From positions 1-64,000 of the forward strand of contig CAVYSY010000036.1 in assembly GCA_963771175.1 (NCBI GenBank): a stretch of DNA of 64,000 nt, written 5' to 3'. This document shows positions 6,876 through 49,312 of the stretch, piece by piece. Both the position numbers and the translations under genes were made by a program. How positions within the stretch are numbered: the stretch's first letter is position 1; each line of letters begins with the position of its first letter. The notes under the pieces were generated by a model. It saw only the letters and a program-made list of their open reading frames with translations. It was not told the origin of the DNA and did no database searches. This stretch comes from an uncultured delta proteobacterium (GTDB taxonomy: Bacteria; Myxococcota; Myxococcia; Myxococcales; Myxococcaceae).

Positions 6876-7103
6876 GGCGAGACTCCTAGAGCGGCGGGTC
6901 GGAGAGACCAGGAACTCTACTTCCGGTGAAAAACTACAACAGCCTGAGAAAGAAGACTACCTCGAAGCAAGGGAGACCCAGGCTATACCGGAGAGGAGTG
7001 TAGCAATAGAACCCAAGGGCTTGAAATTGTTGGATACGCGTCAACCGGGAAGGACATGAAACGCTCGACGGCTCGGGGGGCGAGGCGGCAGAGTGGGCGG
7101 CCT

Positions 7104-7784
7104 ATGACGCGACTGATGCTGGTGTGGGTGCTCGCGCCGCTGGTGGCGGTGGCGCAGGAGACGGAGACGCAGGCCGGGGCGACGGAAGCGGCGAGGCTGG
7201 AGACGAAGCAGGAGAACTTCGGAGCGGTGGTGGCGCCCGCGGCGTTGCCGGACGGGGCGATGGCGGTGTCCGGGTGGGTGGGGGTGCCGGAGCTGGGCGT
7301 GGCGTATCGCCAGGGGGTGGGCGGCTGGGAGGTGGGGGCGCGGGCCCGGTTCGACTACTTGCGGCTGGCGGTGACGGGCGAGGCGGTGGGCCGGCGGCAG
7401 GTGTGGACGAACGGGACGTGGGCGGTGGCACCGGAGCTGTCGCTCGGAGTGACGGGGAACACGGGGAGCCGGTACTTCGACGAGCAGAACCTGGAGGGGT
7501 GGTTCCTCCGGGTGAACCCGGGAGTGGTGGCGAGCTGGAAGGTGGCGGAGACGGTGACGGCGCTGGGCGTGCTGGAGGTGCCGTACGACCTGGGGCTGAG
7601 CCCGAGCGGGACGTGGCGCGTCAAGCCGCTGGCCGGAGGCGGCGCGGAAATCTACCTGGGCGAGGACCTGTCGGTGTCCGCGGTGGGCGAGCTCGGGGTG
7701 GACGTGTTCAAGGAGCTGCGCGGGGTGACGCAGACGCGGCTGGGCTACGGGGTCCGCCTGGGCCTGGGCGTGCGCCTGTTCTGA
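7104..7784 (+). CDS. secreted / outer-membrane beta-barrel hypothetical protein
   Basis: Signal peptide, amphipathic beta-strands, C-terminal Phe. Confidence 0.65.
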   Translation: MTRLMLVWVLAPLVAVAQETETQAGATEAARLETKQENFGAVVAPAALPDGAMAVSGWVGVPELGVAYRQGVGGWEVGARARFDYLRLAVTGEAVGRRQVWTNGTWAVAPELSLGVTGNTGSRYFDEQNLEGWFLRVNPGVVASWKVAETVTALGVLEVPYDLGLSPSGTWRVKPLAGGGAEIYLGEDLSVSAVGELGVDVFKELRGVTQTRLGYGVRLGLGVRLF

Positions 7785-7806
7785 CGGAGATTCCCTACTC
7801 CCCGGC

Positions 7807-8319
7807 CTATGGGGAGTACGGGTAGCGCGCCAGCACCTTCCCGTCCGGAGTGACTGCGTACAATTCGAACCAGTCGGGCGTCAGGATGAATCCGGGAGCG
7901 AACCTCCCGCATTTCTCCACGCGCTGGTTGATCTGGACGAAATACAATCCCCCCTGTTCGCCAACGACGACCTCCATGGCCTTGGCCGAGTGGGAACAGG
8001 TCTTCGCATATTCTTTTGGAAAGCTCGCCAGCAGGTGTTGCAGCGCGGCATGAGCCGCGAGGACAGCAGGACCGTCCAGGGTGGCCAGCGGGCGCAGTTC
8101 ATCGGGCCATTGAATGCCCTCCGCGACGATGGGCGGGCGCGCGGCAGTTCCTCCATCCGCCTCGGGTGTAGCGACAACTCCTCCATCCGTCTCCAGGGCG
8201 CCGGGGAGAGGGGCAGCCGTTCCCCCATCCGCCCCCGCGATGCTCAGTTGGGGGACAACAACCGCCCCTCCGTCCACCAGGAGCGACAGGAGAAGGATGA
8301 AACGATGAGGCCTCATCAT
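7807..8319 (-). CDS. secreted hypothetical protein
   Basis: Hydrophobic N-terminus, DGG repeats, C-terminal ELYAVTPDGKVLARYPY. Confidence 0.6.
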   Translation of the reverse strand: MMRPHRFILLLSLLVDGGAVVVPQLSIAGADGGTAAPLPGALETDGGVVATPEADGGTAARPPIVAEGIQWPDELRPLATLDGPAVLAAHAALQHLLASFPKEYAKTCSHSAKAMEVVVGEQGGLYFVQINQRVEKCGRFAPGFILTPDWFELYAVTPDGKVLARYPYSP

Positions 8320-8398
8320 GGAATCAGGCTCCTGGGCTCTCTACCACTTCAGGGAGGGTGAGCACTGCGCTTGAAGTCACTTTATTCTTTTCCATCGC

Positions 8399-9736
8399 CT
8401 AACGATGCCGCTCTGCCACGCGATAGAGCCGGGTGAGGGAGTAATCCAGGAGAGCTTGGCGCGACCGCATGTAGTGGCGGGCCCGGACAAAGGGAAACCA
8501 GACGCGCCCGCCCACGAGCACCTGGACCTCCTCGAGCTTCCTGCGCGGTATCCACCGGCCTCCGAGGTTGCGCACCAGCACCTGGCCCACGTACGCGCCA
8601 ATAGCGGGCACCGCGCGCTCGTCAATGGCTTCACGCAGGCGGCTCGTCGGGAACTCCTCACGCCAGAAGTAGAAGTCAGCATCCGTGAGGGACTCGGGCG
8701 TCTCCTCGAAGACGGAGGGCACCTCGGTGTGCAGCAGGGCCACGAGGAGCTCGGCGAGGTAGCTGTAGTGCTCGAGGGCGCGCTCCGGGTCATCCACGTC
8801 CGGAGGAAGGGCGGCGTCCGCGGGGCGCCACTCCTCGGGCTCGGGCGGCTGCCACGCGTTGAGCTCGGCAATCCTGCGCTGGCGCTCGTGAATGGCGGCG
8901 CGCTCCACGACACGCGAGAGGAGCGGGGCCACGTCCGGGTGGAAGCGGGGCTCCACGGGAGCGAGCGTGGCGCTGCGCTCGCGCAGGGCGCGCAACACGG
9001 TGTCAGGGTCCAGGTCCGGCCGGAGGTGGCAGTGGGCACGTGCCTGGGCCTCACGCGCTTCCTCGCTGGCGAAGTCCGCGGCCGTGGGCCACGTCACCAG
9101 AAGGACACTCCCGTTGGGCAGTTCCTCCACCCGCCAGGCCGGCGTGGACAGCATGCGCTCGCGGCCGACGGTCTCCACCAGCTTCGGGCCGAAGACGTTG
9201 AGCCAGTACACCTCGTAGATTTTGTCGAAGCCATTCCTGGACTCAGTCTCATCATCGCGGCCGAAATTGGGAGCGCCGGACAATGCCCTGTCAGCCATGC
9301 TGTGGGCCATGGCATAAGTGACCGGGTAGCGCGAGGCCCACGCGCGCACCATCTCCACGAACTCGCGGCAGCGCTCCGCCTCGGAAAAAAAGGAGAGTGG
9401 CGTCACCTTGAGCAAGAGGTCCAGCCTGGGCGGAAGAGGCGGCAGGTAGAGCCCGAGTGACATGTCCATCGCTGGCCACTTCGTGCAATAGAGCCCACAA
9501 TGTGTGTATCTTTCACTGCCCCGCTCCTCCAGGGCCTTCCAAACGGCGGCGCGGGCGTATTTCCGTTGCCGCTTGCCTCCCACAATGTTTGGCATCCACT
9601 CGCCCGCGTGCTCCTCAAGCACTTCGAGAAAGGGCTCCAGTACGCTCTCCCGTGCCGCCCGCGAGTCGTAGGCACCGTCGAAAGTGAGTCGGAGACTGTC
9701 CTCCGACTTCAAATCGTGCACGCTCAGCCGCTTCAT
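8399..9736 (-). CDS. putative immunity-like protein
   Basis: Intact 445-aa frame; YWLNVFGPKLVETVGRERMLSTPAWRVEELPNGSVLLV resembles toxin-immunity proteins; ATGA overlap with upstream ORF. Confidence 0.6.
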   Translation of the reverse strand: MKRLSVHDLKSEDSLRLTFDGAYDSRAARESVLEPFLEVLEEHAGEWMPNIVGGKRQRKYARAAVWKALEERGSERYTHCGLYCTKWPAMDMSLGLYLPPLPPRLDLLLKVTPLSFFSEAERCREFVEMVRAWASRYPVTYAMAHSMADRALSGAPNFGRDDETESRNGFDKIYEVYWLNVFGPKLVETVGRERMLSTPAWRVEELPNGSVLLVTWPTAADFASEEAREAQARAHCHLRPDLDPDTVLRALRERSATLAPVEPRFHPDVAPLLSRVVERAAIHERQRRIAELNAWQPPEPEEWRPADAALPPDVDDPERALEHYSYLAELLVALLHTEVPSVFEETPESLTDADFYFWREEFPTSRLREAIDERAVPAIGAYVGQVLVRNLGGRWIPRRKLEEVQVLVGGRVWFPFVRARHYMRSRQALLDYSLTRLYRVAERHR

Positions 9737-10100
9737 TGGAACAGCACCTCCACGTCCGGAACCTCGCTCTTGGTTGCGTTCACGGCCCTCTTCAATTCAC
9801 TGACGGCCTTGGACATCTGCTCGTCGGGCGCCCAGCGCAGAGGCGCCTTGGTGGCCTTGCCCTGCTGGAGCTCCCCCAGGCGCTTCTCGTAGTAGGCGAC
9901 GTACTCACCCCAACGCGGGTTGCCCTCGGCTCCGGGCGGCGGAGTGTCGGGAGAGGGTCGCTGCTTCTCCAGCACCGCCACGTCCCGGGGCAGACGCGGG
10001 CCCGGCGCCTCCAGAGCCACCAGCGCCAGCCGGGCCTCCACCACCTCCCGGGTGAGGCCCACCCCCTCATCCACCAGGGAGGCCAGCACCCCGGGGCCCT
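9733..10100 (-). pseudogene. remnant of a myxobacterial toxin-like gene
   Basis: GVLASLVDEGVGLTREVVEARL...WGEYVAYYEKRL...PLRW joined to ...EVPDVEVLFQ; no credible start. Confidence 0.5.
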
Positions 10101-10186
10101 TCCGCGCCCCGCTCCTCGCCGCCGAGGCGCCCGTGGCCCCGGGACTGGCCCTGGACAAGAGCGCCTGCGCGATGGATCGCCCGTGC

Positions 10187-10444
10187 TCACCACTCCTGGA
10201 TGGGCGTGACGCGAGGCGTCCCGAGAATCTCCAGGGTGCGCAGCGCCACCTGGATGAGCGTCTGCGCGCACGGCTCACAGCCCCCGGCGCAGCACCTGGG
10301 CCAGTGTCCCTCGGGGTTGCGCAGCAGGGGCCGGACACAGGCCTCGTAGTAGGAGGGGAAGGACAGCTCCTCGCTGGCGCGGCGGAGCGCGGAATTCATC
10401 TGCTCTTCGGTGAGGTCAGCCACGGGCCCATTTAAACCACGCAT
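10187..10444 (-). CDS. small Cys-motif protein (CCxxGCxxC, oxidoreductase-like domain)
   Basis: PRCCAGGCEPC; start codon uncertain. Confidence 0.6.
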   Translation of the reverse strand: MRGLNGPVADLTEEQMNSALRRASEELSFPSYYEACVRPLLRNPEGHWPRCCAGGCEPCAQTLIQVALRTLEILGTPRVTPIQEW

Positions 10445-10736
10445 TGGGCGAACGAGCGCGCCCCATGAATGGCGAAGTGGATGGCCAGGGGACGGCCCCG
10501 GTGGTGGGGTTCGGGTTCGGGCGGTGACGCCCAGGCTCCGAGCGAGAGGCAGAACCGCCCATCGTCCTCATTGTCTCCGAGGACATCAAGGACGCCATGG
10601 ATCGCGCGAGCACCTCTGGCGCGATGTACACGGAGATCTAATCAAGCCTGACCCGTGGCCTGTGTCCCACTAGTCGCAAAGGAGAGGCCGGACCCAGAGG
10701 TCTCGTTAGGTGATGAGGCAGGACAAGTTCCCCAGT

Positions 10737-11651
10737 TCACAAACGAGCTGCGGCATGAAGCACGGCAACAGCCGTATCTCGCAGGAGCAAGAGATCGAGT
10801 TCGAGCCTCTCAGGGGAGAGAACCAGTCGTTCGCCCAAATTTCCTTCTTTGGCAAGACGCACGTATTCGCGATCGATCAAGCCGCGACGATGAACAATCA
10901 GATGTCGCCGCTGATTCAGGAGCAACAGGTCACGATTATCGAGCATCGAGCGAACTCGCTCGTTCTCCGCACCCGGGAACAGCGCCCCGAAAACAACCTT
11001 CATCGCAGGAACGGTGTTAACAGGATGATTCTCAAGCAGAATAGTCCCCATGTGATTCGAGGTATTGAATCCATACTCAGCAAGCGTCTCCATGGAGAGA
11101 TGCTTGAGACCAAACAACTTCCTTGCAGCTTCGTCCTCCATAATCCTGCCAACAAGAACCGACTTCCTATTAACTACCGTCTCCAGCAAATCGCGAGCAA
11201 GAACCTCAAAAGCCCCCCACGCAAGCACCACTCCCTGTCGGAGTATTTCCTGACAAGCATCTGCCAGATCAGCATCCCCTAGAAAAGCGCTCAATTCATT
11301 AAGAATCTGCCCAGAAAAATCAAAAGACCCATCACCCATCCGAACTTCGGCTTTTCTTCGAGCACTGTCTTCAAGCTCGGGCGTCAGAGGCTGGCTTGGA
11401 GCCACATGCTTGAGGGCGCGAATGCGTTCCGCCATGTGGAGCTGCATGAATCTTCTTTTGTGCACACTAGCGGTCGCCATGAAAAAGGGTACCGAAACGG
11501 TTGTTTCGACCGCCACCAAATTCTGGCGAAACGAATCCGCCAACACCTGCAGCGCAGAATCCAGACAACAACCCTCGAAATGAAGATCGAGTTCTCCCCG
11601 CTCAAGCGGAATGAAAAATCGCACCCTCGGCTCAGCCAGTTTTTCACCCAT
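10737..11651 (-). CDS. low-GC hypothetical protein with HEPN-like RxxxxH motif
   Basis: Predominantly helical-looking; AWGAFE upstream and C-terminal RHLIVH; atypical codon usage. Confidence 0.65.
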   Translation of the reverse strand: MGEKLAEPRVRFFIPLERGELDLHFEGCCLDSALQVLADSFRQNLVAVETTVSVPFFMATASVHKRRFMQLHMAERIRALKHVAPSQPLTPELEDSARRKAEVRMGDGSFDFSGQILNELSAFLGDADLADACQEILRQGVVLAWGAFEVLARDLLETVVNRKSVLVGRIMEDEAARKLFGLKHLSMETLAEYGFNTSNHMGTILLENHPVNTVPAMKVVFGALFPGAENERVRSMLDNRDLLLLNQRRHLIVHRRGLIDREYVRLAKEGNLGERLVLSPERLELDLLLLRDTAVAVLHAAARL

Positions 11652-11701
11652 ACAAGTCAAACCCCAGAAACTCTCAACTCAACCTTCCAAGCCCCCTGCA
11701 A

Positions 11702-12872
11702 TCACTCAAGATCGCTCCAGCGATTAATACCATCTTCAATACGCCCTCCAGAAAAAGAGGCAGCCACCATCCTTTTGAACAACAATGGACTGACGGCAAT
11801 AGTCCCAGCGACCAATGGAGAGTATTCTCCTGGTTGAAATCCGCGAAACATGGAGCATCGGGGAGCAGACACCTCTTTCCACTGCTCAAGCGGCTGAACA
11901 AGAATCTCTGGGGCTGCACGACGTTGGCGCCAGACGCCGATCAGCACTTCGCATGTCCCAGCAATCACCTTGAGTGTACTGCTCAAAATACCAGCAAGAG
12001 TCACTTCTGCGGACTCCTCAAGGACAGAAACCTCCAACATATCGCGCAGGACTTCTACTTCTGCACGACCTGGGTCACGGGGGAGCAGCATCACATTAGC
12101 GGGTAGGCGAAAAGGAAGCCAACGCCTAGGGCTTACGCCGATATTTCCGCTCTCAACAGTCAGATTTCTTTCAACGTGCCGGCCACGATGGACCAGCATA
12201 TTTCGATAATCAAGAAGCCATTCCATCCATCCCAAAGGCCCTGACTGGTCGACTACACGGACTATCGCTTCCGCCAACTCGAACTGAAGCCGCTCACCAT
12301 CGGTTGTAGGCGGCTTCATTTTGCGGAATACATTCCTCTGGACTTCATTAAAATCGGCACGAAGAATGCTCTTCTTCAACGCGCCAACACCGATCACAAC
12401 ACCCGCCAAACAATCGAGAGCAGAAGCCACGGCACGCACAACGCCGATGGTGTGCATGCGAGCAAGTTCGCCCGCCAAGTGGTCAGCTGCCGTTCCAAGC
12501 GGCCTAGCATGGAAGCTTGGCCCATCCAGCAAATCAAATCCAAGTGTGGCCACTAGCTCTCGCGACTTCTCGTCGAAAAGCCGCCCAGCTTCCAGAAAGT
12601 GAATTTTGGCCTCACGCAGGTTCATCTCTGATACTGGCCAAACACAATATCATCTGATCGGCAATGAGAATCCGTCGTTGTGTTCCCAAGCCATATCCTG
12701 ACCACCAACCAATACCATAAGCAGAAGGATCTAGATCTCTCTGGAGTTCCTCTGCCAATGCACGCACTTCAGGCACACTGACACCCAGAGCATCAGACAG
12801 CTGCTCATTCGGGCCACGTGGATCATCCTTCGGGAAGGGCTGCTGCAACCGACCTAATTCACTCTGCCGCAT
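11702..12872 (-). CDS. low-GC hypothetical protein with HEPN-like RNxxxH motif (frameshift near 12620)
   Basis: ORFs 12612-12917 and 11702-12625 overlap and join; SALDCLA and DYRNMLVH motifs. Confidence 0.6.
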
Positions 12873-12906
12873 CGTAAAGCCCCAGAAATTTCGTAATAAT
12901 TTAGTT

Positions 12907-13924
12907 TTAACCCACAACCCGCACCTCGCGCACCTGAGGCGAGACCTCCCTGACGGAAATCCTCACGTCGAGGAAGTGCGCGAACGTCTCAATCTGCGTC
13001 TGCGCATGCCCATCGAGCGGCAGGGTTCGGAACGAGCCTCCACGGGCCAACGCCAGCAGCAGCATGAGCTGATCACACAGGTGCTCCCCCACAGGTACAC
13101 CGGCCTCCAGGTAGACCCGCGCCTCCTCCGCCGCGGCAGCCGCCACGTCCTCCGCTCGCACGCCCCGCTCCCCGAACGCGGTGAACACCTCGGTGACGTG
13201 CTCGCTCTCGACTTCCAGTGCCAGCGCGTTCCCCGGCCCCACCGAGCGCTTCAGTTCCTCCACCCGTCGCTCCTCCGCGCCCCACCCGAGCACCCGCCCC
13301 ACCGTCTCCAGCTCCCGCTGGGCCACGACATACGGCACCTGGGCAATCAGCGCCGTGGCCTGCTTCCGCACCACGTTTCCCCGCTCCAGCAAGTGCAAGC
13401 GGCTTCAGGGGCGCGGGCTGCACGCTCACCCGGAACTTCCCTCCCCCCGCCGGGAAGAAGCCGGGCCGCTCCAGCGTGGCCTCCACGCTCGGCCCCATCC
13501 GCCGCACCAGCGGCAGGTACGCCTTCGCCAGGAAGTCGAACGGCGGCGCCGCCGGGTTGTGCGTCCCCCCCTCGAGCACCAGCGTCGACGGCCCGCTCGC
13601 GCTCAGCAGCGCCGGCAGCACCGTCTGCAGCACCAGCGTCGCGCTCCCCGCCGTCCCCACCGCGAAGTGGTAGTCCCCGGACTTCAGGCTCCGCGGCCGG
13701 AACGTCAGCTCCTTCGAGTGCAGCTCCGCCCCTTCCAGCTCCGCGTCGCCCACCGCCGCCGCCGCCTTCACCGCCGTCAGGTGCTGGCGCAGCAGCCCCG
13801 GCTTCGAGCGCCCCGCTCGGATATTCACCATCTGGAACGGCGTCCCCGTCACCAGCGACAGCGCCAGCGACGTGCGCAGCACCTGCCCGCCTCCCTCTCC
13901 CTTTGAACCATCGATGCGAATCAT
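12907..13924 (-). CDS. rtcA: RNA 3'-terminal phosphate cyclase (frameshift near 13395)
   Basis: MIRIDGSKGEGGGQVLRTSLALS, GGTHNP, GFFPAGGG, HLCDQL. Confidence 0.95.
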
Positions 13925-14055
13925 CTCGAAACCCTCCCAATCAACCTCGTGCCCGCACGTAGCGACGCCCGCTCCCTCATCCTAGCGGCCGAAGCCTCGG
14001 AGAGAGCGGGCATCTCGATGTCTCTATCCCCTCATGTCTTTCCTCCCATGCCGGG

Positions 14056-15293
<1,238 letters not shown>

Positions 15294-15349
15294 GACCTGC
15301 TCCTTCGCAATCCGTCCGCCCGGTCCGTGCCGGGCACGCGAGGGGGTAA

Positions 15350-15365
15350 AGCAGCCCGCGTGCCA
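15350..15365 (-). promoter_or_regulatory. sigma54 (-24/-12) promoter of rtcBA
   Basis: TGGCACGCGGGCTGCT, GG-N10-GC spacing, between rtcR and rtcB. Confidence 0.8.
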
Positions 15366-15434
15366 GCCCCGTCCCGAGGGGAGGCACGATTCCCCTGCCC
15401 GTTTCCTTATCTCCCCGGCTAAATTCGTATCCGC

Positions 15435-17085
<1,651 letters not shown>

Positions 17086-17220
17086 GCGGAGTCCCATCGC
17101 TCGGTTGCCTCCAGGCCTGTCCGGCAACCGGGCGCCAGCCCGCCAGCTCCGTTCTGGCGTCTGGCGAGCTCCAGGGTCCTTCCCCACCTTGGATGGAAGG
17201 CATACGTCCTGGAGGCGAAC

Positions 17221-17503
17221 ATGCCCGTCCTGTTCGCGATCTTCTCGCTCATCATCCCGCGCGCTGGTGGTGCTGGTGCTGTGGTTCCTCACCGACTGGT
17301 TCCGGGGCATGTTCGACACGCTGCTCTGGCCCATCCTCGGCTTCATCTTCCTGCCCACCACGCTGCTCTGGTACTCGGCCGTGCAGCACTGGTTCGACGG
17401 GCAATGGACGCTCTGGCCCATCGTGGGGCTGGTCGTCTCCTTGATGATCGACGTGTGGTCGAGAGGCGGACGCGGCGGCAAATCCGAGCCCCCCGTCATG
17501 TGA
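17221..17503 (+). CDS. small membrane protein (frameshift near 17262)
   Basis: GGAGG RBS; MPVLFAIFSLIIPR continues as LVVLVLWFLTDW...WPILGFIFLPTTLLWY. Confidence 0.65.
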
Positions 17504-17585
17504 AGGCCTCCCGCCGAACCGTTCCCGCATAGGGTACTCTCCGCGCCCGCTCGGGGCCGCGTGCCCCGGCCTGCCGGGAGTCCAC

Positions 17586-18455
17586 GTGAGGTACTTCGTC
17601 ATGGTCGCCGTGGGGGCCACCCTCTGGGGGTGCTGGTCCCTCTTCCTGCGACCCGCCGGGCTCTCCGGCCCCCAGAGCGCCCTGCTCGTCATGGGCGTCA
17701 TGTCCCTGCCCGCCCCCTTCGTCCTGCGCCGCGAGTCCCTCCGCGACCGCCGTGCCACGCTCGCGCTCGCCCTCGTCGGGCTCTCCGACGCCGCCAACGC
17801 CGCCCTCTACTTCGCCGCCGTCCAGCGCGGGCCCCTCGCCGTCGCCGTCCTCACCCACTACCTCGCCCCCCTCCTCATCGCCCTCGCCGCCCCCTGGGTG
17901 CTGCGCGAGCCCCGCTCCGCCCGCGCCCTCATCGGGGCCCCCCTCACCCTCGCCGGCCTCGCGCTCCTCCTGGGCACTCCCCAGGGTGGACTCACCGACT
18001 CCTGGACCGCCCTCCTCGGCGGCGCCAGCGCCCTCTTCTACATGGCCAACGTCCTGGCCTCGAAGGTGGCCGCCCGCGCCTACTCGCCCCTCGCCGTCAC
18101 CGCCCTCCACGCCCCCATCTCGGCCCTCGCGCTGCTGCTCGTCTTCGGACGCAGCGCCCTGCCTCCCGCGCTCGACGCCCACCTCCTCCTCGCCATCGGT
18201 GGTGGCGCCCTGTGCGGCCTCTTCGCCAACCTGCTGTTCATTGTCGGACTCCGCCGCATCCCCACCGCCGCCGCCGGGGCCCTCACCTACCTGGAGCCCC
18301 TCACCGCCGCCCTCCTCGGGCAGCTCGTCTTCGGCGAGGCCCTCGGGTCGCTGGGACTCCTGGGCGGCCTCGTCGTCCTCATCTCCGGCGCCTGGGTCGC
18401 CAGCGAGTCCCGTGCTCCCGCGGAGGCGCGCCCCGCCCCCACGGGTACGGGGTGA
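17586..18455 (+). CDS. DMT/EamA family transporter
   Basis: About 10 hydrophobic helices; YLAPLL and YLEPLTA repeats. Confidence 0.85.
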   Translation: MRYFVMVAVGATLWGCWSLFLRPAGLSGPQSALLVMGVMSLPAPFVLRRESLRDRRATLALALVGLSDAANAALYFAAVQRGPLAVAVLTHYLAPLLIALAAPWVLREPRSARALIGAPLTLAGLALLLGTPQGGLTDSWTALLGGASALFYMANVLASKVAARAYSPLAVTALHAPISALALLLVFGRSALPPALDAHLLLAIGGGALCGLFANLLFIVGLRRIPTAAAGALTYLEPLTAALLGQLVFGEALGSLGLLGGLVVLISGAWVASESRAPAEARPAPTGTG

Positions 18456-20137: not shown

Positions 20138-22117
20138 ATGACGATGGGGCGTCCTTCCACACCAGACCGCGAGTTCTCGCGCCTGCTCGGCTCGGGCATC
20201 ACCTACCTGAAGCAGCGCCAGGCGCCTGACGCCCTCTGGCACAGTCCATCCCTCGGTGGACCGATACACACCAGCATGGGGCTCCTCTCGACGAACCTCC
20301 TCGGTGAGGAGGACCCCCTCCGCTTCACGCGGGAGCGGACGCTCGTCGAGAACCTGCTGGCGGACCAGGCCGTGGATGGCGGCTTCATCGCCTACCCCGG
20401 CGGCCCCTCCACCCGGCCCAGCACCCGCATCGTCCTGCTCTCGCTCCAGGTCTTCGGCCAGCACCACCGGGAGGCCCTGGAGCGCGCTCCGGAGCTGCGT
20501 GTGCGCATGGAGCAGGCGGAGCGCCGCGCGCGGGGATTCCTCACCTCTGGCAAGCGCACGGAAGAGCCAGGGGGCGGGTTCTTCAAGGCCGTCGCGGACA
20601 TCCTGTACGACTCCATCAACCCGGAGCACTCGCGGACGCTCCCCGCGCTCCCTGGGATACCCGGGGTGACTCGCCTGCTGCTCGAGCTGAAGCTGCTGGA
20701 GCGCCCCCGGCACCGCATCTCGATGTTCTTCGTGCAGGTCCTGCCGGCCTTCACCGTCCTGTTCCACAAGGCCGCCGAGCGCTCGTCGTGGGTTCGCGCC
20801 ACCCATGCCTTCACGCGGAAGCTCGGTCGTGGCTCCCAGGCATTGAACGCACTGGAGGACCGCATCCTCGCGCTCCAGGAGCCCGGCGGAGCCTGGATGT
20901 GGACCGTCATGGGGACCACGCTCAACCTGCTCGCGCTCCGGGCCCTGGGCCATGGGCCCTCCCATCCGGCGATCCGCCGGGGCATCGCGTACATCGAGCG
21001 GCTGCGGATGCCCACCACCGAGGGACGCCTCGTCCAGGCGTGGTGCCACTCCGAGATCTGGGACACCGTCTGGGCCTGCGACACCCTGCTCGTCGCGGGC
21101 GAGCAGCCCGAGCTGCTCCGCAGCGCCGAGGTGGTCGAGCGCGTCCTGGAGCAGCAGCGCAGCGGCTACTGGGCATACGGCAACGCCTCCAGCCAGGGGG
21201 AGAACGACTCCACCTCGCTCGTCGTCGCCAGCCTCGCGAAGCTCGCGCGGGGGCTCGAGGGAAGGACGCGGAACGCCCTCGTCGTGTCGGTGCGGCAGGC
21301 GGTGACCGAGTTCCTGCGCGCCCAGCAGCGGGATGGGGGCTGGGGCTACTCGCCCGCTCCCCACCTGGCACCCTACTCGTACGGCTCCCGGGTACCCTCC
21401 GGCTCCGAGGCCAACCTGATCGACGCCTCAACGGCGGACGTCACCGCGCGCGTCCTGCTCGCGCTCCAGGCCGTGGAGGCCACGGACCTGCTGGAGGCGG
21501 GGATGGCCGCCCAGGCCCGCGACGCCATGAAGCGGGGGATGGAGTTCCTGAGGCACTCGCAGACCCGGACGGGAAGCTGGTGGGGACGCTGGCGCGCCGG
21601 CTACCTGTCGGCGTTGCCGTTCATCACCCCGGCCCTCCGGGTGGGAGGCGAGCCCGAGGGCTCGGCCTGCTTCACCGCCGTGCGCGACTTCCTATTCACC
21701 CACCAGCACCCGGATGGGGGCTGGGGCGATGGAACCGAGGCCGACCGTGATGCCTCGAAGGCCGGCTGCGGCGCGAGCACGCCCCTGCAGACCGCGGGCG
21801 CCCTCATCGCGCTGGTCGCGACGACTCCGGGGAAGGACCTCGGAGACAGCGTGCCCCTCCAGCGGGGAGTCGACTACCTCGCCCGAACCCAGCGCGCCGG
21901 CACCTGGAGCAACGGCCGGGCCCTCTACACCGCTGCGTTCCAGGCCGACTACTACGACTCCCCCATGGGGACGCACACGATGGTCACCCGGGCGCTCACC
22001 TATATCTCGCTCGCGAGAGACCTCGGCGTCGACGCGGCCACCCGGCGGATGGTGTGCGGGAAGGGTCTCGGAGAGCCGCTGGCGCGCGGGCGCGAGCTGA
22101 CAGGGAACCCGGCTTGA
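20138..22117 (+). CDS. squalene-hopene-cyclase-fold (class II terpene cyclase) protein
   Basis: QW repeats (QQRDGGWG, QTRTGSWWGRW, QHPDGGWG), IWDT, TADVTARVL, STPLQTA. Confidence 0.85.
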   Translation: MTMGRPSTPDREFSRLLGSGITYLKQRQAPDALWHSPSLGGPIHTSMGLLSTNLLGEEDPLRFTRERTLVENLLADQAVDGGFIAYPGGPSTRPSTRIVLLSLQVFGQHHREALERAPELRVRMEQAERRARGFLTSGKRTEEPGGGFFKAVADILYDSINPEHSRTLPALPGIPGVTRLLLELKLLERPRHRISMFFVQVLPAFTVLFHKAAERSSWVRATHAFTRKLGRGSQALNALEDRILALQEPGGAWMWTVMGTTLNLLALRALGHGPSHPAIRRGIAYIERLRMPTTEGRLVQAWCHSEIWDTVWACDTLLVAGEQPELLRSAEVVERVLEQQRSGYWAYGNASSQGENDSTSLVVASLAKLARGLEGRTRNALVVSVRQAVTEFLRAQQRDGGWGYSPAPHLAPYSYGSRVPSGSEANLIDASTADVTARVLLALQAVEATDLLEAGMAAQARDAMKRGMEFLRHSQTRTGSWWGRWRAGYLSALPFITPALRVGGEPEGSACFTAVRDFLFTHQHPDGGWGDGTEADRDASKAGCGASTPLQTAGALIALVATTPGKDLGDSVPLQRGVDYLARTQRAGTWSNGRALYTAAFQADYYDSPMGTHTMVTRALTYISLARDLGVDAATRRMVCGKGLGEPLARGRELTGNPA

Positions 22118-22619: not shown

Positions 22620-24899
22620 ATGCCGCTGCGTAACCTTCTCACGAGCCTCGCCCTGGCCCTCGGCCTCGTCGCCGCGACCGCATCGGCGGCGCAGACCCCC
22701 GCCGCGCCCCTCCCCTCCCGGGAGGAGCGACTGGCCCACCTCGGCCGGCTCTGGGGTCAGGTGCGCTACCGCCACCCGTACCTCGCCTACAAGGGCATCG
22801 ACTGGGATGCCGCGCTCGTCGCCGCCATCCCCAAGGTGGAGGCCGCCAAGGACCGCACCGCCTACGCCGAGGCCGTGCAGGACATGTTGGACACGCTCCG
22901 TGACTCCGCCACCCACGTCGAGCGTGCCGAGGAACAGAAGGAGGATGCGGGGAAGGCTCCGGCCAACCCCGTCCGCGAGCTGCGAAGCTGGGCGGGCAAG
23001 GACGTGCTCGTGTTGGACTTGCGCGCCGTCCAGGACCGGAGCGTCCTGAACCGCCTGCGCTACCAGCCCGAGGAGGTGCGCCCGGATATCTCCCGCTCCA
23101 AGGCCATCATCATCGACCTGCGCGCCCGCGGGCTAGGGCCCGACGCCGCCTGGAAGATGTCCCAGGTGCTCGGCAACCTCCTCCCCTTCCTCCTCCACCA
23201 GGAGCTCCAGGTTCCGGGGGAGCGCTCGGTGCTCCACTCGGGCTACCGCCCGCAGACGATTCCCACCAGTGGCGGGTACACCACCTCGTTCCTCACCACC
23301 GCAGGCGAGCAGCTCTCCCCCAAGGGCGATGGCAAGGCCCGCCCCGTCGTCTTCCTGCTGGATGACAAGTCGTACCTGGATCCCCGCGCCCTCACGATGA
23401 AGGCCCTGGGACTGGCGCAGCTCGTCACCGAGGGGCGGCTGGACGACGGAGCCGTGGTGCAACAGACGCGCGTGGAGCTGGGCGCCGGGCTGACGGCGAC
23501 GGTGCGGGTGAGCGAGCTGGGCATCCCCCTGCGCGCGGACGCGGTGCTGCCCAAACGCACCCGCACCGAGGGCAAGGACGAGACGCTCCAGAAGGCACTC
23601 GACCTGGCGCGCAAGCCGGCGAAGAAGGCGAAGGCGCGCGAGTTCGACTCGCTGCCCCCGGCCCGGTGGCAGGCCGACCGCAAGTACGAGGACATGCTCT
23701 ACCCGAGCCGCGAGTACCGCCTGCTCGCCCTCTTCCGGCTCTGGAACGTCATCCAGCTCTTCTACCCGTACAAGCACCTGCTGGATCGGGACTGGGACGA
23801 GGCGCTGACCACCTTCCTGCCGAAGTTCGAGAAGGCGAAGGACGCCACGGAGTACGCGCTCGCGGTGGCGGAGCTGAGCACGCGCGTGCAGGACGGGCAC
23901 ACCACCCTGCGAGGCCACCCCGAGCTGGAGAAGCGGGGCATCTCCGGCATGAACGCGCCCTTCGAGCTGATGGAGGTGGACGGCAAGCCGGTGGTCATGG
24001 AGGTGAGGGACGCGGAGGCGGCTCCGGGACTCGCGCGGGGTCAGGTCGTCGAGACGCTCGACGGCAAGCCCTTCGCCGAGCGCGTCAAGGCGCTGGAGCC
24101 CTATGTGACGGCCTCGCACCCCGTGCACCTGCGCCACCGCCTGCTGGCCACGGCGCTGGCCGGGCCCGAGGGCTCCCAGGCGACGGTGGGCGTGCGCGAC
24201 GTCTCCGGGCAGGTGAAGCAGGTTCGCTTCACCCGGAGCATGAAGTCCTTCCAGAAGCCCCAGCAGGGCGAGGCCTGGCGCCTGCTCGCGGACAACATCG
24301 GCTACGTGGACCTGACGCGCCTGCAGACGCCCGAGGTGCCAACCGTGTTCGAGAAGCTGAAGAACACGAAGGCCATCGTCTTCGACATGCGTGGCTATCC
24401 GAATGGGACGGCCTGGGCCATCGCCCCGTACCTCAACACGCGCAAGGCGCGCTACGCGGCGGTGTTCGAGCGGAACCTCGTCTCGGCGGACGACACGAGC
24501 GGCCGGTACAAGTTCTTCCAGGAGCTGCCCAAGGGCGATGTGCCCCTGTACCGCGGCCGGACCGTGATGCTCATCGACGAGCGGGCCATCAGCCAGTCCG
24601 AGCACTCGGGCCTCTTCTTCGAGGCGGCCAACGGCACCACCTTCATCGGCAGCCCCAGCGCGGGCGCCAACGGCGACATCACGGATCTGGTGCTGCCCGG
24701 CGGCATCACCCTGGTCTTCACGGGTCACGACGTGCGGTACCCGGACGGCCGCCAGCTCCAGCGGGTGGGCCTCAGGCCCCAGGTCCTCGTGCGGCCGACG
24801 CTCCCGGGCCTCCAGTCCGGCAAGGACGAGGTGCTGGACCGGGCGCTTGCGCTCCTCAAGGGCACGAGCAAGGTGATGGCCGGCGACTCCGTCCGGTAG
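22620..24899 (+). CDS. secreted S41 family peptidase
   Basis: Signal peptide, IGYVDL, FDMRGYPNG, AISQSEH, SAGANG, QRVGLRP. Confidence 0.9.
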   Translation: MPLRNLLTSLALALGLVAATASAAQTPAAPLPSREERLAHLGRLWGQVRYRHPYLAYKGIDWDAALVAAIPKVEAAKDRTAYAEAVQDMLDTLRDSATHVERAEEQKEDAGKAPANPVRELRSWAGKDVLVLDLRAVQDRSVLNRLRYQPEEVRPDISRSKAIIIDLRARGLGPDAAWKMSQVLGNLLPFLLHQELQVPGERSVLHSGYRPQTIPTSGGYTTSFLTTAGEQLSPKGDGKARPVVFLLDDKSYLDPRALTMKALGLAQLVTEGRLDDGAVVQQTRVELGAGLTATVRVSELGIPLRADAVLPKRTRTEGKDETLQKALDLARKPAKKAKAREFDSLPPARWQADRKYEDMLYPSREYRLLALFRLWNVIQLFYPYKHLLDRDWDEALTTFLPKFEKAKDATEYALAVAELSTRVQDGHTTLRGHPELEKRGISGMNAPFELMEVDGKPVVMEVRDAEAAPGLARGQVVETLDGKPFAERVKALEPYVTASHPVHLRHRLLATALAGPEGSQATVGVRDVSGQVKQVRFTRSMKSFQKPQQGEAWRLLADNIGYVDLTRLQTPEVPTVFEKLKNTKAIVFDMRGYPNGTAWAIAPYLNTRKARYAAVFERNLVSADDTSGRYKFFQELPKGDVPLYRGRTVMLIDERAISQSEHSGLFFEAANGTTFIGSPSAGANGDITDLVLPGGITLVFTGHDVRYPDGRQLQRVGLRPQVLVRPTLPGLQSGKDEVLDRALALLKGTSKVMAGDSVR

Positions 24900-24939: not shown

Positions 24940-26363
24940 CTAGTCGACCTTCTTCATCTCGACGACGAAGGAGCGCGGCTCGAGGAAGCCCGTCACCCTC
25001 GGGTCGCGGAGCAGCTCCCCGTTGGACGAGACGAACGCCACCGTGGGCAGGCCCTCCACCCCGAAGCGCTCCATCAGCGCGTCCAGCGCGTCGTCGCTCT
25101 GGGTGGCGTCCACCTTCACGTTGATGAAGCGCCCCGACTCCTCGATGACCTCCAGCGCCGGGTAGGTCTCGCGGTCCAGCTCCTTGCAGGCCGCGCACCA
25201 CTCCGCGAAGAAGTCGATCATCACCGGCCGGCCCTCGTTCTTCGCGCGGGCCAGCACCTGCTCGAAGGACTCGGACGAGAAGCCACTGCCCTTCTCCGGC
25301 AACACCGCGTGCCACGCGAAAGTGGGCGCCTTCGGCCTCTCCACCAGGCCGAGCGACACCCACAGCATGCCCGCCGTCTTCGCGTCCATGGCGCCGCCGC
25401 GCAGCACCAGCGCCACCACCACCAGCGCCACGCCAAAGCCCTTGAGGCTGAAGTCCCGCGCGCCCTCCTTGAAGGACAGGTGGATGGCGCCCAGCAGCAC
25501 GCCCGCCGTCGCCAGCACCGCGGCGATCGCCGTGCCCGGCGTGCGGCCCGAGCTGCTCGGCCGCGCCGCTTCAGCCGCCCCGCCGACCGCGGGGAAGCCG
25601 TCCTTCAGGTACGAGATGGCGAGCGCCACCAGCACGATGCCCAGCACGCTCTTCACCCACTCCATCCACACCCCGCCCCGAGGCAGGCGCACGGTGAAGA
25701 CGCCAATGAGGAAGAAGGGCACGCCGATGCCCAGCGCGTAGACGAAGAGCAGCGCCGCGCCGAGCACCGTGCTCTGCGACTTCGCCACGAAGGCCAGCAG
25801 GCCCGTCAGCACCGGCCCGGTGCACGGCGCCGCGAGGAAGCCGGACACGCTGCCCATGAGGAAGGCGCCCGTGACGACCCGAGCCGCCCACCGAGTTGAG
25901 CCGCTGCTGCAGCACCTGGGGCAGCGCCAGCTCGAAGGCGCCGAACATGGACGTGGCCAGCAGCAGCAGGAACACCGCCAGCCCCGTCACCACTACCGGA
26001 CTGCCGAGCATCGAGCCGAAGGCCTGCCCCGTCTTCGCCGCCAGCACGCCCAGCGCGCTGAACACCACGCCCATGCCGATGATGTAGGAGGGACGTCAGC
26101 ACGAGCGCCTTGCCTCGGCCCTCGGCCCTGCGCGCCCCGAAGACGGACACGGTGATGGGGATGAGCGGGTAGACGCAGGGCGTCATCGCGGTGAGCAGGC
26201 CCCCGGCGAACACCACCGCCGCGCCCAGGGCGAAGCTACCGGCCTCGAGGAAACGCGCCGCATCCAACCCCGTGCTGGGACCTGTCGGGAGGAGCCAGGG
26301 CACGACCGCCACGGCCAGCCCAATGACCGCCGCAACGACTCCCACCTTCTTCTTCGCGTCCAT
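24940..26363 (-). CDS. dsbD: protein-disulfide reductase DsbD-like (frameshifted)
   Basis: TPCVYPLIPIT, AAPCTGP, C-terminal thioredoxin FAEWCAACKE. Confidence 0.85.
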
Positions 26364-26528
26364 GTCACTCCTCTTGCCCACCGCGGCCCCTTTTATACGC
26401 ACCAGGGCCCGGTGGTTACACCCGAGGTCGAACCGGGCCGCCAGCAGGTAACGCGCCCCGACCCAGCCCGCCAGCCCCCCTGCGCTTCCACCCCCGACGG
26501 CCGGGCAGGCGCACCCGGAACGACTCCC

Positions 26529-34670: not shown

Positions 34671-37428
34671 GTCCCGTGGACGGTTTCATCAGGTAGGCCG
34701 CCAGCTCCTCCAGCAACTCCTCCGTCATGCCCAGGGCAGTGGGCCTCCAGGGCGCGGTGAAGCGCGCGTCCATGCTCGTCTGGCGGATGGTGGCCAGCCA
34801 CTCGTGCACCACCCGCTCCGGGTAGCCCGCGCTCATCGCCGCATCGTGCAGCAGCGAGTACTCCCGCAGCAGGAAGGTGCTGAAGGTGATGGGATCGTCC
34901 GCCCCCACCGCGATCGGCACCGGCGGAGGCGCTCCCTCCTGGGCCTGGGGTGGAAACAGCCGCAGGATGGGGTGGTTGCGCAGGTCCAACAGGTTGCCGA
35001 TGAGCAGGTTGCTGGAGGGATTCACCTCCACGACGATGCCTCGGGCCGCCACGCACCGGCGCACCCCATCCTGCACGGCCCGGAGCGCCGCCACCTCCGA
35101 GCCATCCAGCGCGATGTCCACCAGTGTCTGCCCCCGCTGGTAGACGCCCTCGCTCTCGCGGTACTGGGACAGGATCCTCCAGACGTCCCGGTGGCTCTGC
35201 ACCTGGAGCCAGTCCACCCGCTGGAACGCCCGCGAGAAGGCATCCAGCCCCACCTCGGCGCCCTCCCGCGCCAGGGGCGGACACCACAGGTTGTGCAGCA
35301 CGTGGTGGGCCTCGGCCAGCACGAGTGGCTGGAAGTCCCTGCCGAAGACGAGCTCGGACAGCTCGCGGATGGCGTTCTGCACCTGCTGCGGCCTCCCGGG
35401 CGGAGCCACCACCCACAGCTCCGGGGGCAGCCGGAAGCGACTGTACAGCCGCCACTCGAAGACCAGGTCCCACAGACGATCCTCGGCCGGCATCATCACC
35501 GCGCCCACCGACTCGGCCCACATCCGGGGCTCCTCGCCCAGCGCGATGGCGTGCCCCAGCCGTCCCCCGGTGCGATCCAACTGGTAGTGGACGCACTCGT
35601 AGATGCGGCGCAGCCCCTCCATGAGGTGGCGGAAGTCCTCGCCCACGTGGGCCGTCATCCGCAACGGCGGAGGACTCCGGGCCGAGCTCACCGCCGCGGC
35701 GCGGGCCGCCTCCCTCCGCACGAAGCGGTACAGCGGCACCAGCACCCAGTTCGGCACGCCCAGCTCGTCCGAGGCCACGTCCAGCCCGCGCACCAGCCAC
35801 AGCGCCAGGGGCACGGCCCGCAGCAGATCCACCAGGGCCTGGACCTTGACGGACTGCGTGGCGTGGTAGTCCGCGAAGCGACCTCCCAGCCGCAGCTCGC
35901 CCCGAGGCCGTGGCTCGGCGTAGGTGCCCCCGACCAAAGGCCGGTGGGGAGCCCGCGAGCCAGCGGAACCTCGGATCCCGATTCTTGGTGAGGTGCAGCA
36001 CCACGCCGAACTCGGGCGCCTGCCCCCCGATGCTGCCCGTCTGTCGCAGCACGTGCCGCCAGGAGCGTGTCATCCGCCACAGCTCCTCGGCCAGCTTCAT
36101 GGGATCCGCCGCGGGGCTGGTCCGAACTTCCAGCGAGGCAATGGGCTGGCTTCCTCCCGCCACGTAGTAGGACACCTCGGCGCGAGCGGCGCGCAGCGGG
36201 CCGCGGAGCGCGCGCAGGCGCTCGTAGAAGCGGAGGAACCACTGCAGGCCGGCCGTCATCGGCCGCTGCACGATAGGTGCGGTAACACAGGCAGCGGATC
36301 CGCAGCGCCTGCCAGAAGACGCGGCAGAAGGACTCGTCCGGCGCCTGGAGCCGCTCCTGGAGATCCATCCGGGACAGGGCGTTGCGCACCAGCCAGCGCT
36401 CCCCGGCGTTGGGCTTGTTCAGCCGGAGGCGGAGGGCGAGGGGATCGCACCGCCTCCACACCTCGTCGAGCGTCTCGGGAGGCTCCGAGGCGTTGCGGCA
36501 GGCCAGGGGGTGGAGCTCCGCGTAGAGGTCTCGCAGCTCGTCGAACTCCGGCAGCAGCTCCTCCTGGCCCCATGCCAGCGCGCGCAAGGTCCGCTCCAGC
36601 ACCCGCCACCGCTGGGGCATCCAGGAGGGCGAGCGCCTCAACTCCCAGACGAAGTCCCACAGTGACCCCTCGCCGCCGCGCAGGAGGAACTCGGCGAGCA
36701 CGCAGCGCGCCACCGCGGCGGCCAGCAACCAATCCAGCAACGAGCCCTCTTCTCCGAAAGGCAGGCCCGGTCCCCGCATGGCGTCCCGCTCCAGGCCCGG
36801 TTCGCCCAGGGCCGACAGCAGCGAGGCCCACATGAGGGGGAAGTCCATCCCCGCGCCGATGTGGTGGTGGATCTCCGTCACTCCCCGGTCCAGCAGGTGC
36901 CGCACCAGCAGGGGCGGCTCGATGTTCACCCGCGTGGCCGGAGGCGACACCGCCAGCGCGGACAGCAGCAGATCCTCCGGCAGCGCGAAGGTGAGCCAGC
37001 GGTAGTGCGGAGATGGCCTCCACCGTCTCGGCTTTCGTGCTCTGGATGACTTCGGTGACGCCGGGGCGGAGCTCCAGATGCGCCTCGGCCAGGTGCCGCA
37101 GGTATTGGCTCAGGCTCACCCCCCGCCCCGTGTTCCCGGCCCCGAGGCCACCGGGATGAATGAACCAGAAGAAGTCGCGCACCGCGATGAGCCGGTCGAG
37201 CGACCAGCCGCTGGCGTGCTCCGACAGGCTCTTCTCGCACTCGCGCCACAGCTCCCGGGTGGGCTGGCCGGCTCTGCCCGCCAGCCCGGGCTCCAACACC
37301 ATCACCGAGCGCCGGAAGGCATCCAGATGGGTGAGCGGGTAGCTGGCCACCTCGGCCCGGACGTAGGCCTCGGGAACGCGCCGCGGCGTCAGGACGCCCA
37401 TGGCCTGGCCCGAGCCCTCCTCGCTCAT
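34408..37428 (-). CDS. large adenosine-deaminase-family protein, RdrB-like (about 3 frameshifts)
   Basis: EIHHHIGAG, GLDVASDE, TAHVGEDF, RLGHAIALG, EVNPSSN, GADDP; true 3' end may be near 34680. Confidence 0.8.
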
Positions 37429-40082: not shown

Positions 40083-40254
40083 GCCCGGCTCCTCTTTCCT
40101 GGACGCAAGTCCCCAGGAAGAACATGGAGAGCCGGAACGCCTCGCGAACCGGACGAGGAGACAGTCGGGCTGTTGGATGACCGGGGAGCTCACCCCACCG
40201 TGCGCACGAGCCGGGGCTGGAGGCCGTCCAGGAGGGCCTCCGCGGGCAAATCAC

Positions 40255-44333: not shown

Positions 44334-44425
44334 AGGTGCGCCGATGTAGGAGCACTCAAGGGACTCGCGGGGTTACCCCGACCCACCGGCGAGGGGACGG
44401 ACAATCGCCCGGAAGGTTTACCGAG

Positions 44426-45864
<1,439 letters not shown>

Positions 45865-45888
45865 TGACAAGGCTTCATAAGGGAGCCC

Positions 45889-46291
45889 ATGGCTTACAGC
45901 GACAAGGTCATCGACCACTACGAGAACCCCCGCAACGTCGGCACGCTCGACAAGGACGGACCCCAACGTGGGCACCGGCCTGGTCGGCGCGCCGGCCTGC
46001 GGCGACGTGATGCGCCTGCAGCTGAAGATCACCGACGAGGGCGTCATCGAGGACGCCAAGTTCAAGACCTTCGGCTGCGGCTCGGCCATCGCCTCCAGCT
46101 CGCTGGTCACCGAGTGGGTGAAGGGCAAGACGGTGGACCAGGCGATGGACGATCACCAACAAGGACATCGCGCGGGAGCTGTCGCTGCCGCCGGTGAAGA
46201 TCCACTGCTCGGTGCTCGCCGAGGACGCCATCAAGGCGGCCATCGCCGACTTCAAGAAGAAGCGCGAGGCCGCGCGCAGCAGAAGGCGTAG
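45889..46291 (+). CDS. iscU: Fe-S scaffold IscU (frameshifted)
   Basis: [53 protein letters not shown]. Confidence 0.95.
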
Positions 46292-46316
46292 CGGCCCGAG
46301 TGCAAGGAGACGCGTG

Positions 46317-46719: not shown

Positions 46720-46808
46720 CGCCGCCCCTCTCCCATGAGGGAGTCATCCTGGGGCTCGGCCGCGGCAAGCCGGGCCCTTTGGTCTTTCCCCCGGAAAGGG
46801 GACGTGAA

Positions 46809-47443: not shown

Positions 47444-47447
<4 letters not shown>
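46809..47447 (+). CDS. hscB: co-chaperone HscB (frameshifted)
   Basis: CWNC...[41 protein letters not shown]. Confidence 0.9.
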
Positions 47448-49307
<1,860 letters not shown>

Positions 49308-49312
49308 AAGCC

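Follow-up and report, generated by a model that had tools for sequence, protein, structure and literature searches.

The 64,000-nt window analysed here (the whole stretch, positions 1 to 64,000 of contig CAVYSY010000036.1 from an uncultured myxobacterium) contains an RNA-repair operon, rtcBA, and directly downstream of rtcA a low-GC island of about 2.2 kb (10700..12906, minus strand) holding two genes, here termed gene A (11702..12872, minus strand) and gene B (10737..11660, minus strand). A preliminary description of the locus had taken the two for a horizontally acquired pair of HEPN-like RNases plugged onto the operon and coupled to the machinery that senses and repairs their cuts. The arrangement of the genes is as that description had it, with two co-oriented genes beginning close to 35 nt past the rtcA stop: the gap between the stop and the ATG of gene A (12872) is 34 nt, gene A is separated from the co-oriented gene B by 41-50 nt, and rtcBA and both island genes all lie on the minus strand, directly adjacent to one another. 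Gene B is intact, encoding 304 aa from an ATG at 11651 or 307 aa from a TTG at 11660, and gene A is a single gene of about 380 aa from an uncharacterised family that is read as two open reading frames (ORFs) in this sequence.

The GC fraction of the island (10700-12906) is 0.524 compared to 0.696 for the 64-kb window and 0.683/0.706 for the flanks, in keeping with the drop to 50-58% against some 70% that had been put forward from spot counts. It is the lowest-GC 2.2-kb stretch in the window, with the next non-overlapping stretch at 0.658 and a standard deviation of such stretches of 0.033. At third codon positions the GC (GC3) of the island genes is 0.44-0.52 and that of host genes 0.83-0.95. 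The correlation in codon usage between A and B is 0.66, compared to 0.19 and 0.33 for the two with host genes. Because GC and GC3 are far below those of the host and the codon usage of A and B is alike, the island is regarded as a horizontally acquired insert in a myxobacterium of the Archangium/Cystobacter type with a GC content of about 70%, and the foreign origin proposed earlier is upheld. A search of the island ends for flanking direct and inverted repeats gave only short matches at chance level, with neither a target-site duplication nor terminal repeats, and no integrase or tRNA was found near the ends. No RNA family was detected by an Rfam scan of 7000-18000 at E<=1.

A 15-nt leader element lies just upstream of the start of each island gene, as TTTCTGGGGCTTTAC (12874..12888, minus strand) 2 nt ahead of the gene A ATG and as TTTCTGGGGTTTGAC (11656..11670, minus strand) before the start of gene B. 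The element has the form TTTCTGGGG(C/T)TT(T/G)AC, and its 9-nt core TTTCTGGGG occurs just twice on both strands of the 64 kb, before A and before B; the pattern was derived from these two copies, such that a chance expectation of zero is post hoc. It may serve both genes in ribosome binding or in regulation, and A and B may have come as one block and be translated or regulated alike.

The two protein families

The features by which HEPN domains are recognized have been set out by Anantharaman et al. (2013; PMC3710099), in the part of that work dealing with the motif, as an Rx4-6H motif with a polar residue (mostly N, D or H) after the R, which closes helix 3 ahead of the loop leading to helix 4, together with an acidic residue in helix 2, upstream of the motif and likewise conserved, that usually takes the form Ex3[KR], with inserts between helices 2 and 3 being frequent. 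The Rx4-6H motif and the polar residue after the R are present in the families of both A and B. Placement of the motif at a helix end before a loop is seen both in the model of gene B and in that of a gene A relative (P0006), while the upstream acidic residue is found in full in gene B and in part in gene A. The numbering of helices within a four-helix core is a provisional assignment of ours based on DSSP.

For gene B 59 relatives were found, the best of which is a hypothetical protein of Myxococcus xanthus (P0121) with 48% identity, and a frameshift-aware alignment to this protein revealed no frameshift. The RHLIVH motif (10890..10907, minus strand) conforms to Rx4H with H or N after the R. 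It is present as had been reported, and R252 and H257 are each retained in 39 of 39 family members, of which 27 have H, 11 have N and one has C as the residue after the R. Upstream of it the sequence EVLAR (11193..11207, minus strand), an E-x3-R lying in a long helix spanning residues 130-165, is a candidate second active-site element, with E152 kept in 39/39 and R156 (E+4) in 28/39. In the AlphaFold model of the protein (pLDDT 92.9, with helices from DSSP) the motif at 252-257 ends helix 243-258, after which come a loop and the long helix 283-305, short helices fill the stretch between helix 130-165 bearing E152 and the motif helix, and the protein has its own helical N-terminal region of about 130 aa.

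Profile searches place this family close to a known HEPN group. Eight of the 39 gene B relatives match PF18735 (HEPN_RiboL-PSP) with E from 2.4e-5 to 0.01 over profile positions 23-162 of 191, the best score being the 24.8 bits (E 2.4e-5) of relative P0172 compared to a gathering cut-off of 28.4, and one relative matched HEPN_Cthe2314 at E 0.04. No match of the window gene B protein itself to PF18735 was obtained at E<=0.1. The nearest named Atlas cluster to gene B is likewise RiboL-PSP-HEPN (score 0.90, 156 shared features). Since none of its relatives attains the gathering score of PF18735 and the window protein itself is unmatched, gene B is filed as related to that family and not as a member.

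A homodimer prediction for gene B passed with a score of 0.80, the best of three controls scoring 0.00, and its predicted interface takes in residues 255-260 as well as helix 129-157. Between runs the agreement in contacts was at least 89%, and the pLDDT of the partner was at least 85. The same mark was reached by 20/30 proteins whose solved structures are pairs of one chain and by 1/23 solved as single chains, counts that apply only roughly because an own alignment was used. Such a pass supports binding rather than showing it and may reflect a likeness to solved dimers. Taken together, motif, acidic residue and nearest named relatives indicate that the gene B protein very probably belongs to the HEPN superfamily.

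Gene A is read as an ORF of 86 aa (12872-12612) and one of 307 aa (12625-11702), which together align end to end with single relatives of about 380 aa. Frameshift-aware alignment to four relatives with 38-42% identity placed exactly one frameshift near 12623-12632 with no stops. The first island gene had been described as one gene with an RxxxxH motif oriented with its neighbour; motif and orientation stand, while the single open frame does not in the sequence as given. The family is a large one with 952 representatives at E<=0.001 in a 50%-identity library. Its motif RNMLVH (12188..12205, minus strand), an Rx4H with N after the R, is present where it had been reported and is conserved, R and H being kept in 68/68 and in 133/133 representatives and the residue after the R being N in 67/68 and H in one. 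Translating the frameshifted window copy with a four-letter codon step was rejected, as the word in question recurs in frame at another point of the gene, and the full-length relative P0006 was used for the fold model (AlphaFold, pLDDT 92.3), in whose numbering R220, H225 and D151 are each invariant in 133/133 diverse representatives that are 28-48% identical to P0006. According to DSSP the motif at 220-225 ends helix 212-226 and is followed by strands and a loop and then a long helix 284-315, with D151 in the preceding long helix 126-160 as an acidic feature that does not take the Ex3[KR] form.

The N-terminal part of gene A (12612..12872, minus strand), comprising the 86 aa in frame, has a conserved GIGWW hairpin and weak matches to HTH_AsnC-type and HTH_24 profiles (E 0.0095 and 0.077, below cut-off), and the P0006 model has helices at 3-9, 23-27 and 33-44 and then short strands at this end, a pattern in keeping with what is possibly a winged-helix-like domain. 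Gene A is not filed as a member of any named Pfam family, and the conserved residues tip the balance slightly towards its protein belonging to the HEPN superfamily.

Relatives of either protein were sought among phages and known defence systems. Searches by tblastn against phage genomes gave no match for A or B, as did those against PHROGs, and PADLOC run on 77 relatives of A and B returned nothing consistent, with five unrelated weak hits at E 0.004-0.006.

Genomic context of the two families

The loci of gene B relatives were taken from species-representative genomes by one profile scan, giving 34 loci in Acidobacteriota, Pseudomonadota, Verrucomicrobiota, Chloroflexota and Planctomycetota. 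Within 10 kb of these, an A-family ORF was found at 0/34 and RtcA or RtcB at 0/34 (BLASTP, 1e-4), a generic sigma-54 activator being hit at one locus, and no cluster of genes other than B within 5 kb was common to more than 3 of the 34. In 31/33 loci the GC fraction of the gene B relative is 0.03 or more below that of its flanks, the mean difference being -0.09. At 6/34 loci (L010, L027, L028, L029, L030 and L033) the relative is split into two or three ORFs, reflecting either assembly error or the frequent inactivation of a costly gene.

The 118 ORFs neighbouring gene B relatives that were scanned are, where matched by Pfam, mostly unrelated housekeeping genes, with a minority of mobile, toxin-antitoxin (TA) or defence type (resolvase, integrase, Rha, PIN, HicB, MqsR, OLD-like and Abi_C). 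Individual examples of the latter are genes for a DUF5677 protein and Abi_C at L023 (309-3859), an OLD-like AAA/TOPRIM gene at L018 (31-1026), a MqsR toxin gene at L029 (10788-11090) and a HicB antitoxin gene at L020 (9002-9427).

A search of plasmids with gene B gave no match. Distant gene A relatives (22-30% identity) were present on seven actinobacterial plasmids, and the three contexts inspected are rich in TA and defence genes, encoding TIR, caspase, RelA/SpoT-like, methyltransferase, DUF262, ImmA/IrrE, VapC and RelE proteins. On the Pseudarthrobacter plasmid NZ_CP047899.1 (L036, 64726-77655) the gene A relative lies in a defence island with TIR and caspase-family genes and genes for a RelA/SpoT-like pyrophosphokinase, an EcoRI-type methyltransferase and a DUF262 protein. 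Members of the gene B family, RtcA and RtcB were found within 6 kb of 0/3 of the plasmid gene A loci.

The notion of A and B as paralogues was also ruled out, BLASTP giving no match between them and hhalign a probability of 1.8% with the motif alone aligned. As such the suggestion that the two form an RNase pair is not borne out, either by relationship or by company, given that none of the 34 B loci has A and none of the three A loci has B. The further suggestion that the island genes belong with rtc fared no better. Co-occurrence with rtc genes, one of the points on which the preliminary description had let its proposal stand or fall, is absent for the gene B family and, on thin data, for the gene A family. 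From these surveys of gene neighbourhoods neither the pairing of A with B nor the link to rtc is conserved, and the locus that had been singled out as the best candidate in the window for an undescribed system presents instead a juxtaposition of rtc and island that looks like an accident of one genome.

The rtc operon and the integrity of the sequence

The gene for RNA 3'-phosphate cyclase, rtcA (12907..13924, minus strand, with its stop at 12909-12907), was identified by the Pfam families RTC and RTC_insert and is read in two frames, with RTC positions 2-171 in ORF 13924-13073, RTC_insert and RTC 171-221 in ORF 13398-12907 and a frame change near 13370-13400. The RNA ligase gene rtcB (14056..15293, minus strand) is recognized from pieces of the Pfam RtcB family in four ORFs, and a frameshift-aware alignment with Archangium violaceum RtcB (P0322) extends over 408 aa at 90.0% identity with eight frameshifts and no in-frame stops. 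Divergent from rtcB, the gene for the CARF/sigma-54 activator rtcR (15435..17085, plus strand) is in at least four pieces, with the RtcR domain over two frames and Sigma54_activat over two further ORFs. Between the two lies the promoter-like site TGGCACgcgggCTGC (15351..15365, minus strand), 58 nt upstream of the rtcB ATG (15293), which has one mismatch to TGGCAC-N5-TTGC, the sequence that we take to be the sigma-54 consensus. Matches with up to two mismatches occur at chance level over the window and it is the position alone that supports the site, a sigma-54-type -24/-12 site in the rtcR-rtcB spacer being as expected for an operon controlled by RtcR.

The interval from rtcA to gene A proved free of terminator-like sites in a scan for these, in agreement with what had been noted earlier. 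Three minus-strand terminator-like sites were found, all within the 5' part of gene B, compared to a shuffle mean of 3.4. No minus-strand sigma-70-like site was found in the island by a simple promoter scan, a result that says little for a myxobacterium. As there is no terminator-like site between rtcA and A, read-through of A and B is plausible, and it is possible, judging from the layout of the sites, that in this one genome both are read from the RtcR/sigma-54 promoter of rtcBA.

Broken reading frames are widespread in the window. Genes split over two to five frames include rtcB, rtcR and rtcA, those with DsbD, IscS-type aminotransferase, NifU and Hsp70 domains, and genes with LPG-synthase, mevalonate-decarboxylase and HMG-CoA-reductase domains, and the split genes fall in the regions 14056-17085, 24943-26528, 44336-49690, 49923-51095 and 58537-61933, while long genes at 20138-22117, 22620-24899 and 37425-40193 are intact. 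With essential genes broken while the protein sequence is otherwise well kept, assembly indels are indicated, and the frameshifts look like locally clustered errors of this kind. Since the window is full of frameshifts in unrelated genes, that in gene A is probably an assembly or sequencing error and not decay. Programmed frameshifting in gene A was considered and rejected, the frameshifts being scattered over many unrelated genes. Likely assembly errors of this sort matter for any gene call made from this window.

A Pfam scan of all ORFs in 7044-18452 identified only RtcR, RtcB, RtcA, an EamA transporter and unassigned proteins, and revealed no component of the McrB/McrC-type GTPase, coiled-coil nuclease or helicase kind beside the island genes. 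Downstream of the island three minus-strand genes of host GC occupy 8399-10444, encoding proteins of 85 aa (10444-10187), 201 aa (10338-9733) and 445 aa (9736-8399) that have no Pfam or NCBIfam match, the last with a weak match to a PADLOC candidate, PDC-M20B (E 3e-4). Elsewhere the only match of a 922-aa protein (37425-40193, minus strand) is to 'Novel STAND NTPase 5', weak and below threshold (E 3.5e-5, 24.1 vs 34 bits), and this may be another conflict-system gene.

Interpretation of the island genes

Genes A and B are best explained as two unrelated, individually mobile solo genes, most likely encoding stand-alone HEPN-type abortive infection (Abi) or toxin RNases, that landed downstream of rtcA by accident, a reading to which a probability of roughly 55% is given. 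Both would be metal-independent HEPN-type RNases of the Abi or toxin kind. In gene B a helical region at the N-terminus would precede a HEPN-like domain in the C-terminal half, with a helical insert between the E-x3-R helix and the motif helix, and according to the models it would probably act as a symmetric homodimer joining two Rx4H motifs. Gene A would combine a possible winged-helix N-terminus with a central helical domain carrying the invariant D...RNxxxH and a further C-terminal domain. By analogy with known effectors, the proteins would be inactive until triggered, for example by phage infection, and once triggered would cleave tRNA or mRNA to products that end in 2',3'-cyclic phosphate and would bring growth to a halt. 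The site after rtcA would be an accident of insertion rather than a conserved design.

Such genes would have counterparts among known systems. Ribo L-PSP-HEPN (PF18735) is given as distantly related to AbiF/AbiD in the relevant part of Anantharaman et al. (2013; PMC3710099), and gene B resembles it in its Rx4H with a polar next residue, the upstream E, the all-helical domain, the weak profile matches and the nearest Atlas cluster. Gene B differs from what is recorded there in having neither a fusion to endoRNase L-PSP nor a ParB neighbour, in a family score below gathering and in the added helical N-terminal region of its own. Single-gene HEPN proteins of Abi or defence type are exemplified, in the respective portions of the sources, by AbiD, AbiF, AbiJ, AbiU2 and AbiV (PMC3710099) and by ApeA (bioRxiv 10.64898/2026.01.26.701840). 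A and B are like these in that each consists of one protein bearing a HEPN-type motif, needs no partner gene and is of low GC compared to the host, scattered over phyla and sometimes beside TA, restriction-modification or mobile genes, and are unlike them in lacking a consistent PADLOC match or phage and PHROGs relatives and in being known from sequence alone. A feedback between HEPN nucleases and an RtcR-type sensor has already been proposed for the CoCoNuT superoperons, in the section that Bell et al. (2024; PMC11090510) devote to them. The present locus resembles the RtcR-associated CoCoNuT, as described there, in that HEPN-type nucleases, all in one orientation, come after a CARF/sigma-54 activator of the RtcR type. 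CoCoNuT are conserved multi-gene systems of the McrBC type that have coiled-coil nucleases and helicases and are linked to RtcR homologues in many genomes, whereas here two small solo genes follow a canonical rtcBA with a link that is not conserved. The Salmonella Gifsy-1 prophage protein STM14_3211 has been considered as a HEPN candidate inducer of rtc in the passage of PMC9879122 that treats it, and it shares with the island genes the character of a horizontally acquired predicted HEPN protein that is a possible source of a signal activating RtcR; unlike them, it belongs to a prophage at a distance from rtc and is, in that account, a candidate only. A literature search found no description of either family or of solo HEPN genes appended to rtcBA, with the reservation that the survey of RtcB neighbourhoods by Burroughs and Aravind (2016) may list RNase toxins near rtcB.

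A number of observations weigh against reading A and B as independent HEPN RNases. Neither a PADLOC model, as had been looked to in support of an anti-phage function, nor a Pfam, NCBIfam or PHROGs model matched the A or B protein of the window at E<=0.1 or 0.01. HEPN profiles matched 0/13 and 0/80 proteins of the gene A family, whose acidic motif is without the Ex3[KR] form. Every PF18735 match in the gene B family is sub-gathering and 31/39 relatives are without any. Searches of PDB sequences with both family profiles returned only RPA32 and XkdH, rejected as chance-level. Foldseek, to which the preliminary description had looked for the HEPN fold, returned no HEPN structure for either model, with none at E<=0.001 against the PDB and no HEPN entry among the hits listed, although comparison of whole models is a weak test for helical bundles. 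Its best hits reached E 0.25 and 0.31 and TM scores of at most 0.32, the entries listed being pore-forming toxins, transporters and P450s, treated as noise, and the model of the gene A relative gave nothing significant or useful against BFVD. The HEPN-like nature that had been claimed for both genes on the strength of their motifs is well supported for B and more weakly so for A, but without a HEPN match by Foldseek. The mostly housekeeping neighbours of gene B relatives provide a context that shows no defence role, while the contexts of the gene A family rest on three distinct plasmids and are thin data. Lastly, A and B share codon usage and the 15-nt leader element, which hints that the two arrived, or are regulated, together and fits two independent genes less well.

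The absence of a fold match opens the way to the suggestion that one or both proteins are not RNases, with RxxxxH lying in a structural or ligand-binding helix, for example of a regulator in the case of A or of an immunity or adaptor protein. Profile support is likewise nil for A and sub-threshold for B, and the residues W215, P263, R313 and E282, invariant in the gene A family outside the motif, suggest other functional sites. Set against this, R, H and the upstream acidic residue are invariant in 133 and 39 diverse sequences in the manner of an active site, the polar residue that follows the R and the siting of the motif at the end of a helix agree with the description of HEPN in print (in the part of PMC3710099 cited above), the nearest named relatives of gene B by two methods are RiboL-PSP-HEPN, and the predicted dimer of gene B has the motif at its interface. 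This alternative is regarded as unlikely. That the island is instead a decaying remnant, with gene A a pseudogene, the rtc operon inactivated and nothing functional, would account for the frameshift in gene A, for rtcB, rtcA and rtcR all being broken in the given sequence and for the splitting of 6/34 gene B relatives, as often befalls toxic genes. It is a poor account of frameshifts that also affect genes of Fe-S cluster assembly, an Hsp70-type chaperone, DsbD and the mevalonate pathway, of an rtcB 90% identical to the orthologue of another genus without in-frame stops despite eight frameshifts, and of a gene A free of stops or other lesions beside an intact gene B, a pattern that suits assembly indel errors better than decay and renders the remnant very unlikely.

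The same gene order that makes read-through plausible lends itself to the view that A and B are a dedicated two-gene RNase system tied to rtcBA, in which their cuts would activate RtcR to give more A and B together with more repair, forming a self-limiting circuit. In keeping with this the genes are co-oriented with gaps of 34 nt after rtcA and 41-50 nt between A and B and no intervening terminator-like site, there is a sigma-54-like site upstream of rtcB with rtcR divergent, and the leader TTTCTGGGG and similar codon usage are shared. RtcR binds pieces of tRNA that terminate in a 2',3'-cyclic phosphate, as stated in the relevant part of PMC7790460, and a comparable loop has been proposed for RtcR-associated HEPN CoCoNuTs in the section of PMC11090510 already mentioned. 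However, 0/34 B loci have A, RtcA or RtcB within 10 kb, neither B nor Rtc lies within 6 kb at any of the 3 plasmid A loci, no relationship between A and B could be detected, and the A family with its 952 clusters is far larger than that of B with 59 proteins, though the searches differ in kind. A dedicated system of this type is therefore highly improbable. Somewhat different is the speculation, in itself very improbable, that a chance insertion made a working circuit in this genome, such that RtcR, on sensing 2',3'-cyclic phosphate at RNA ends, drives one rtcB-rtcA-A-B transcript encoding two RNases and a resealing ligase, TTTCTGGGG marks co-regulated translation and gene A founds a new HEPN family with a winged helix-turn-helix, a HEPN and a C-terminal domain in at least 952 clusters, missed by all profile libraries. 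Were this so, the locus would represent, in natural and minimal form, the feedback between RtcR and HEPN nucleases that has been put forward for CoCoNuT superoperons.

On the preferred reading, that two unrelated solo genes came to lie after rtcA by accident, RNase genes plugged onto an RNA-repair operon are an accident of one genome that conceals no hidden system, and recognizing this saves follow-up effort. What the island does provide is two protein families missed by current defence and domain libraries. The gene A family, a large one of 952 clusters at 50% identity, has an invariant D...RNxxxH and no Pfam, PADLOC or PHROGs model. The gene B family branches off, as a divergent group, close to the RiboL-PSP/AbiD-AbiF HEPN proteins and is always a lone, low-GC drop-in gene. 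If either proves to be an RNase toxin or Abi protein it would add to the single-gene HEPN effectors, and the locus would in that case be a natural test of read-through from an RtcR promoter tying a toxin to its repair system.

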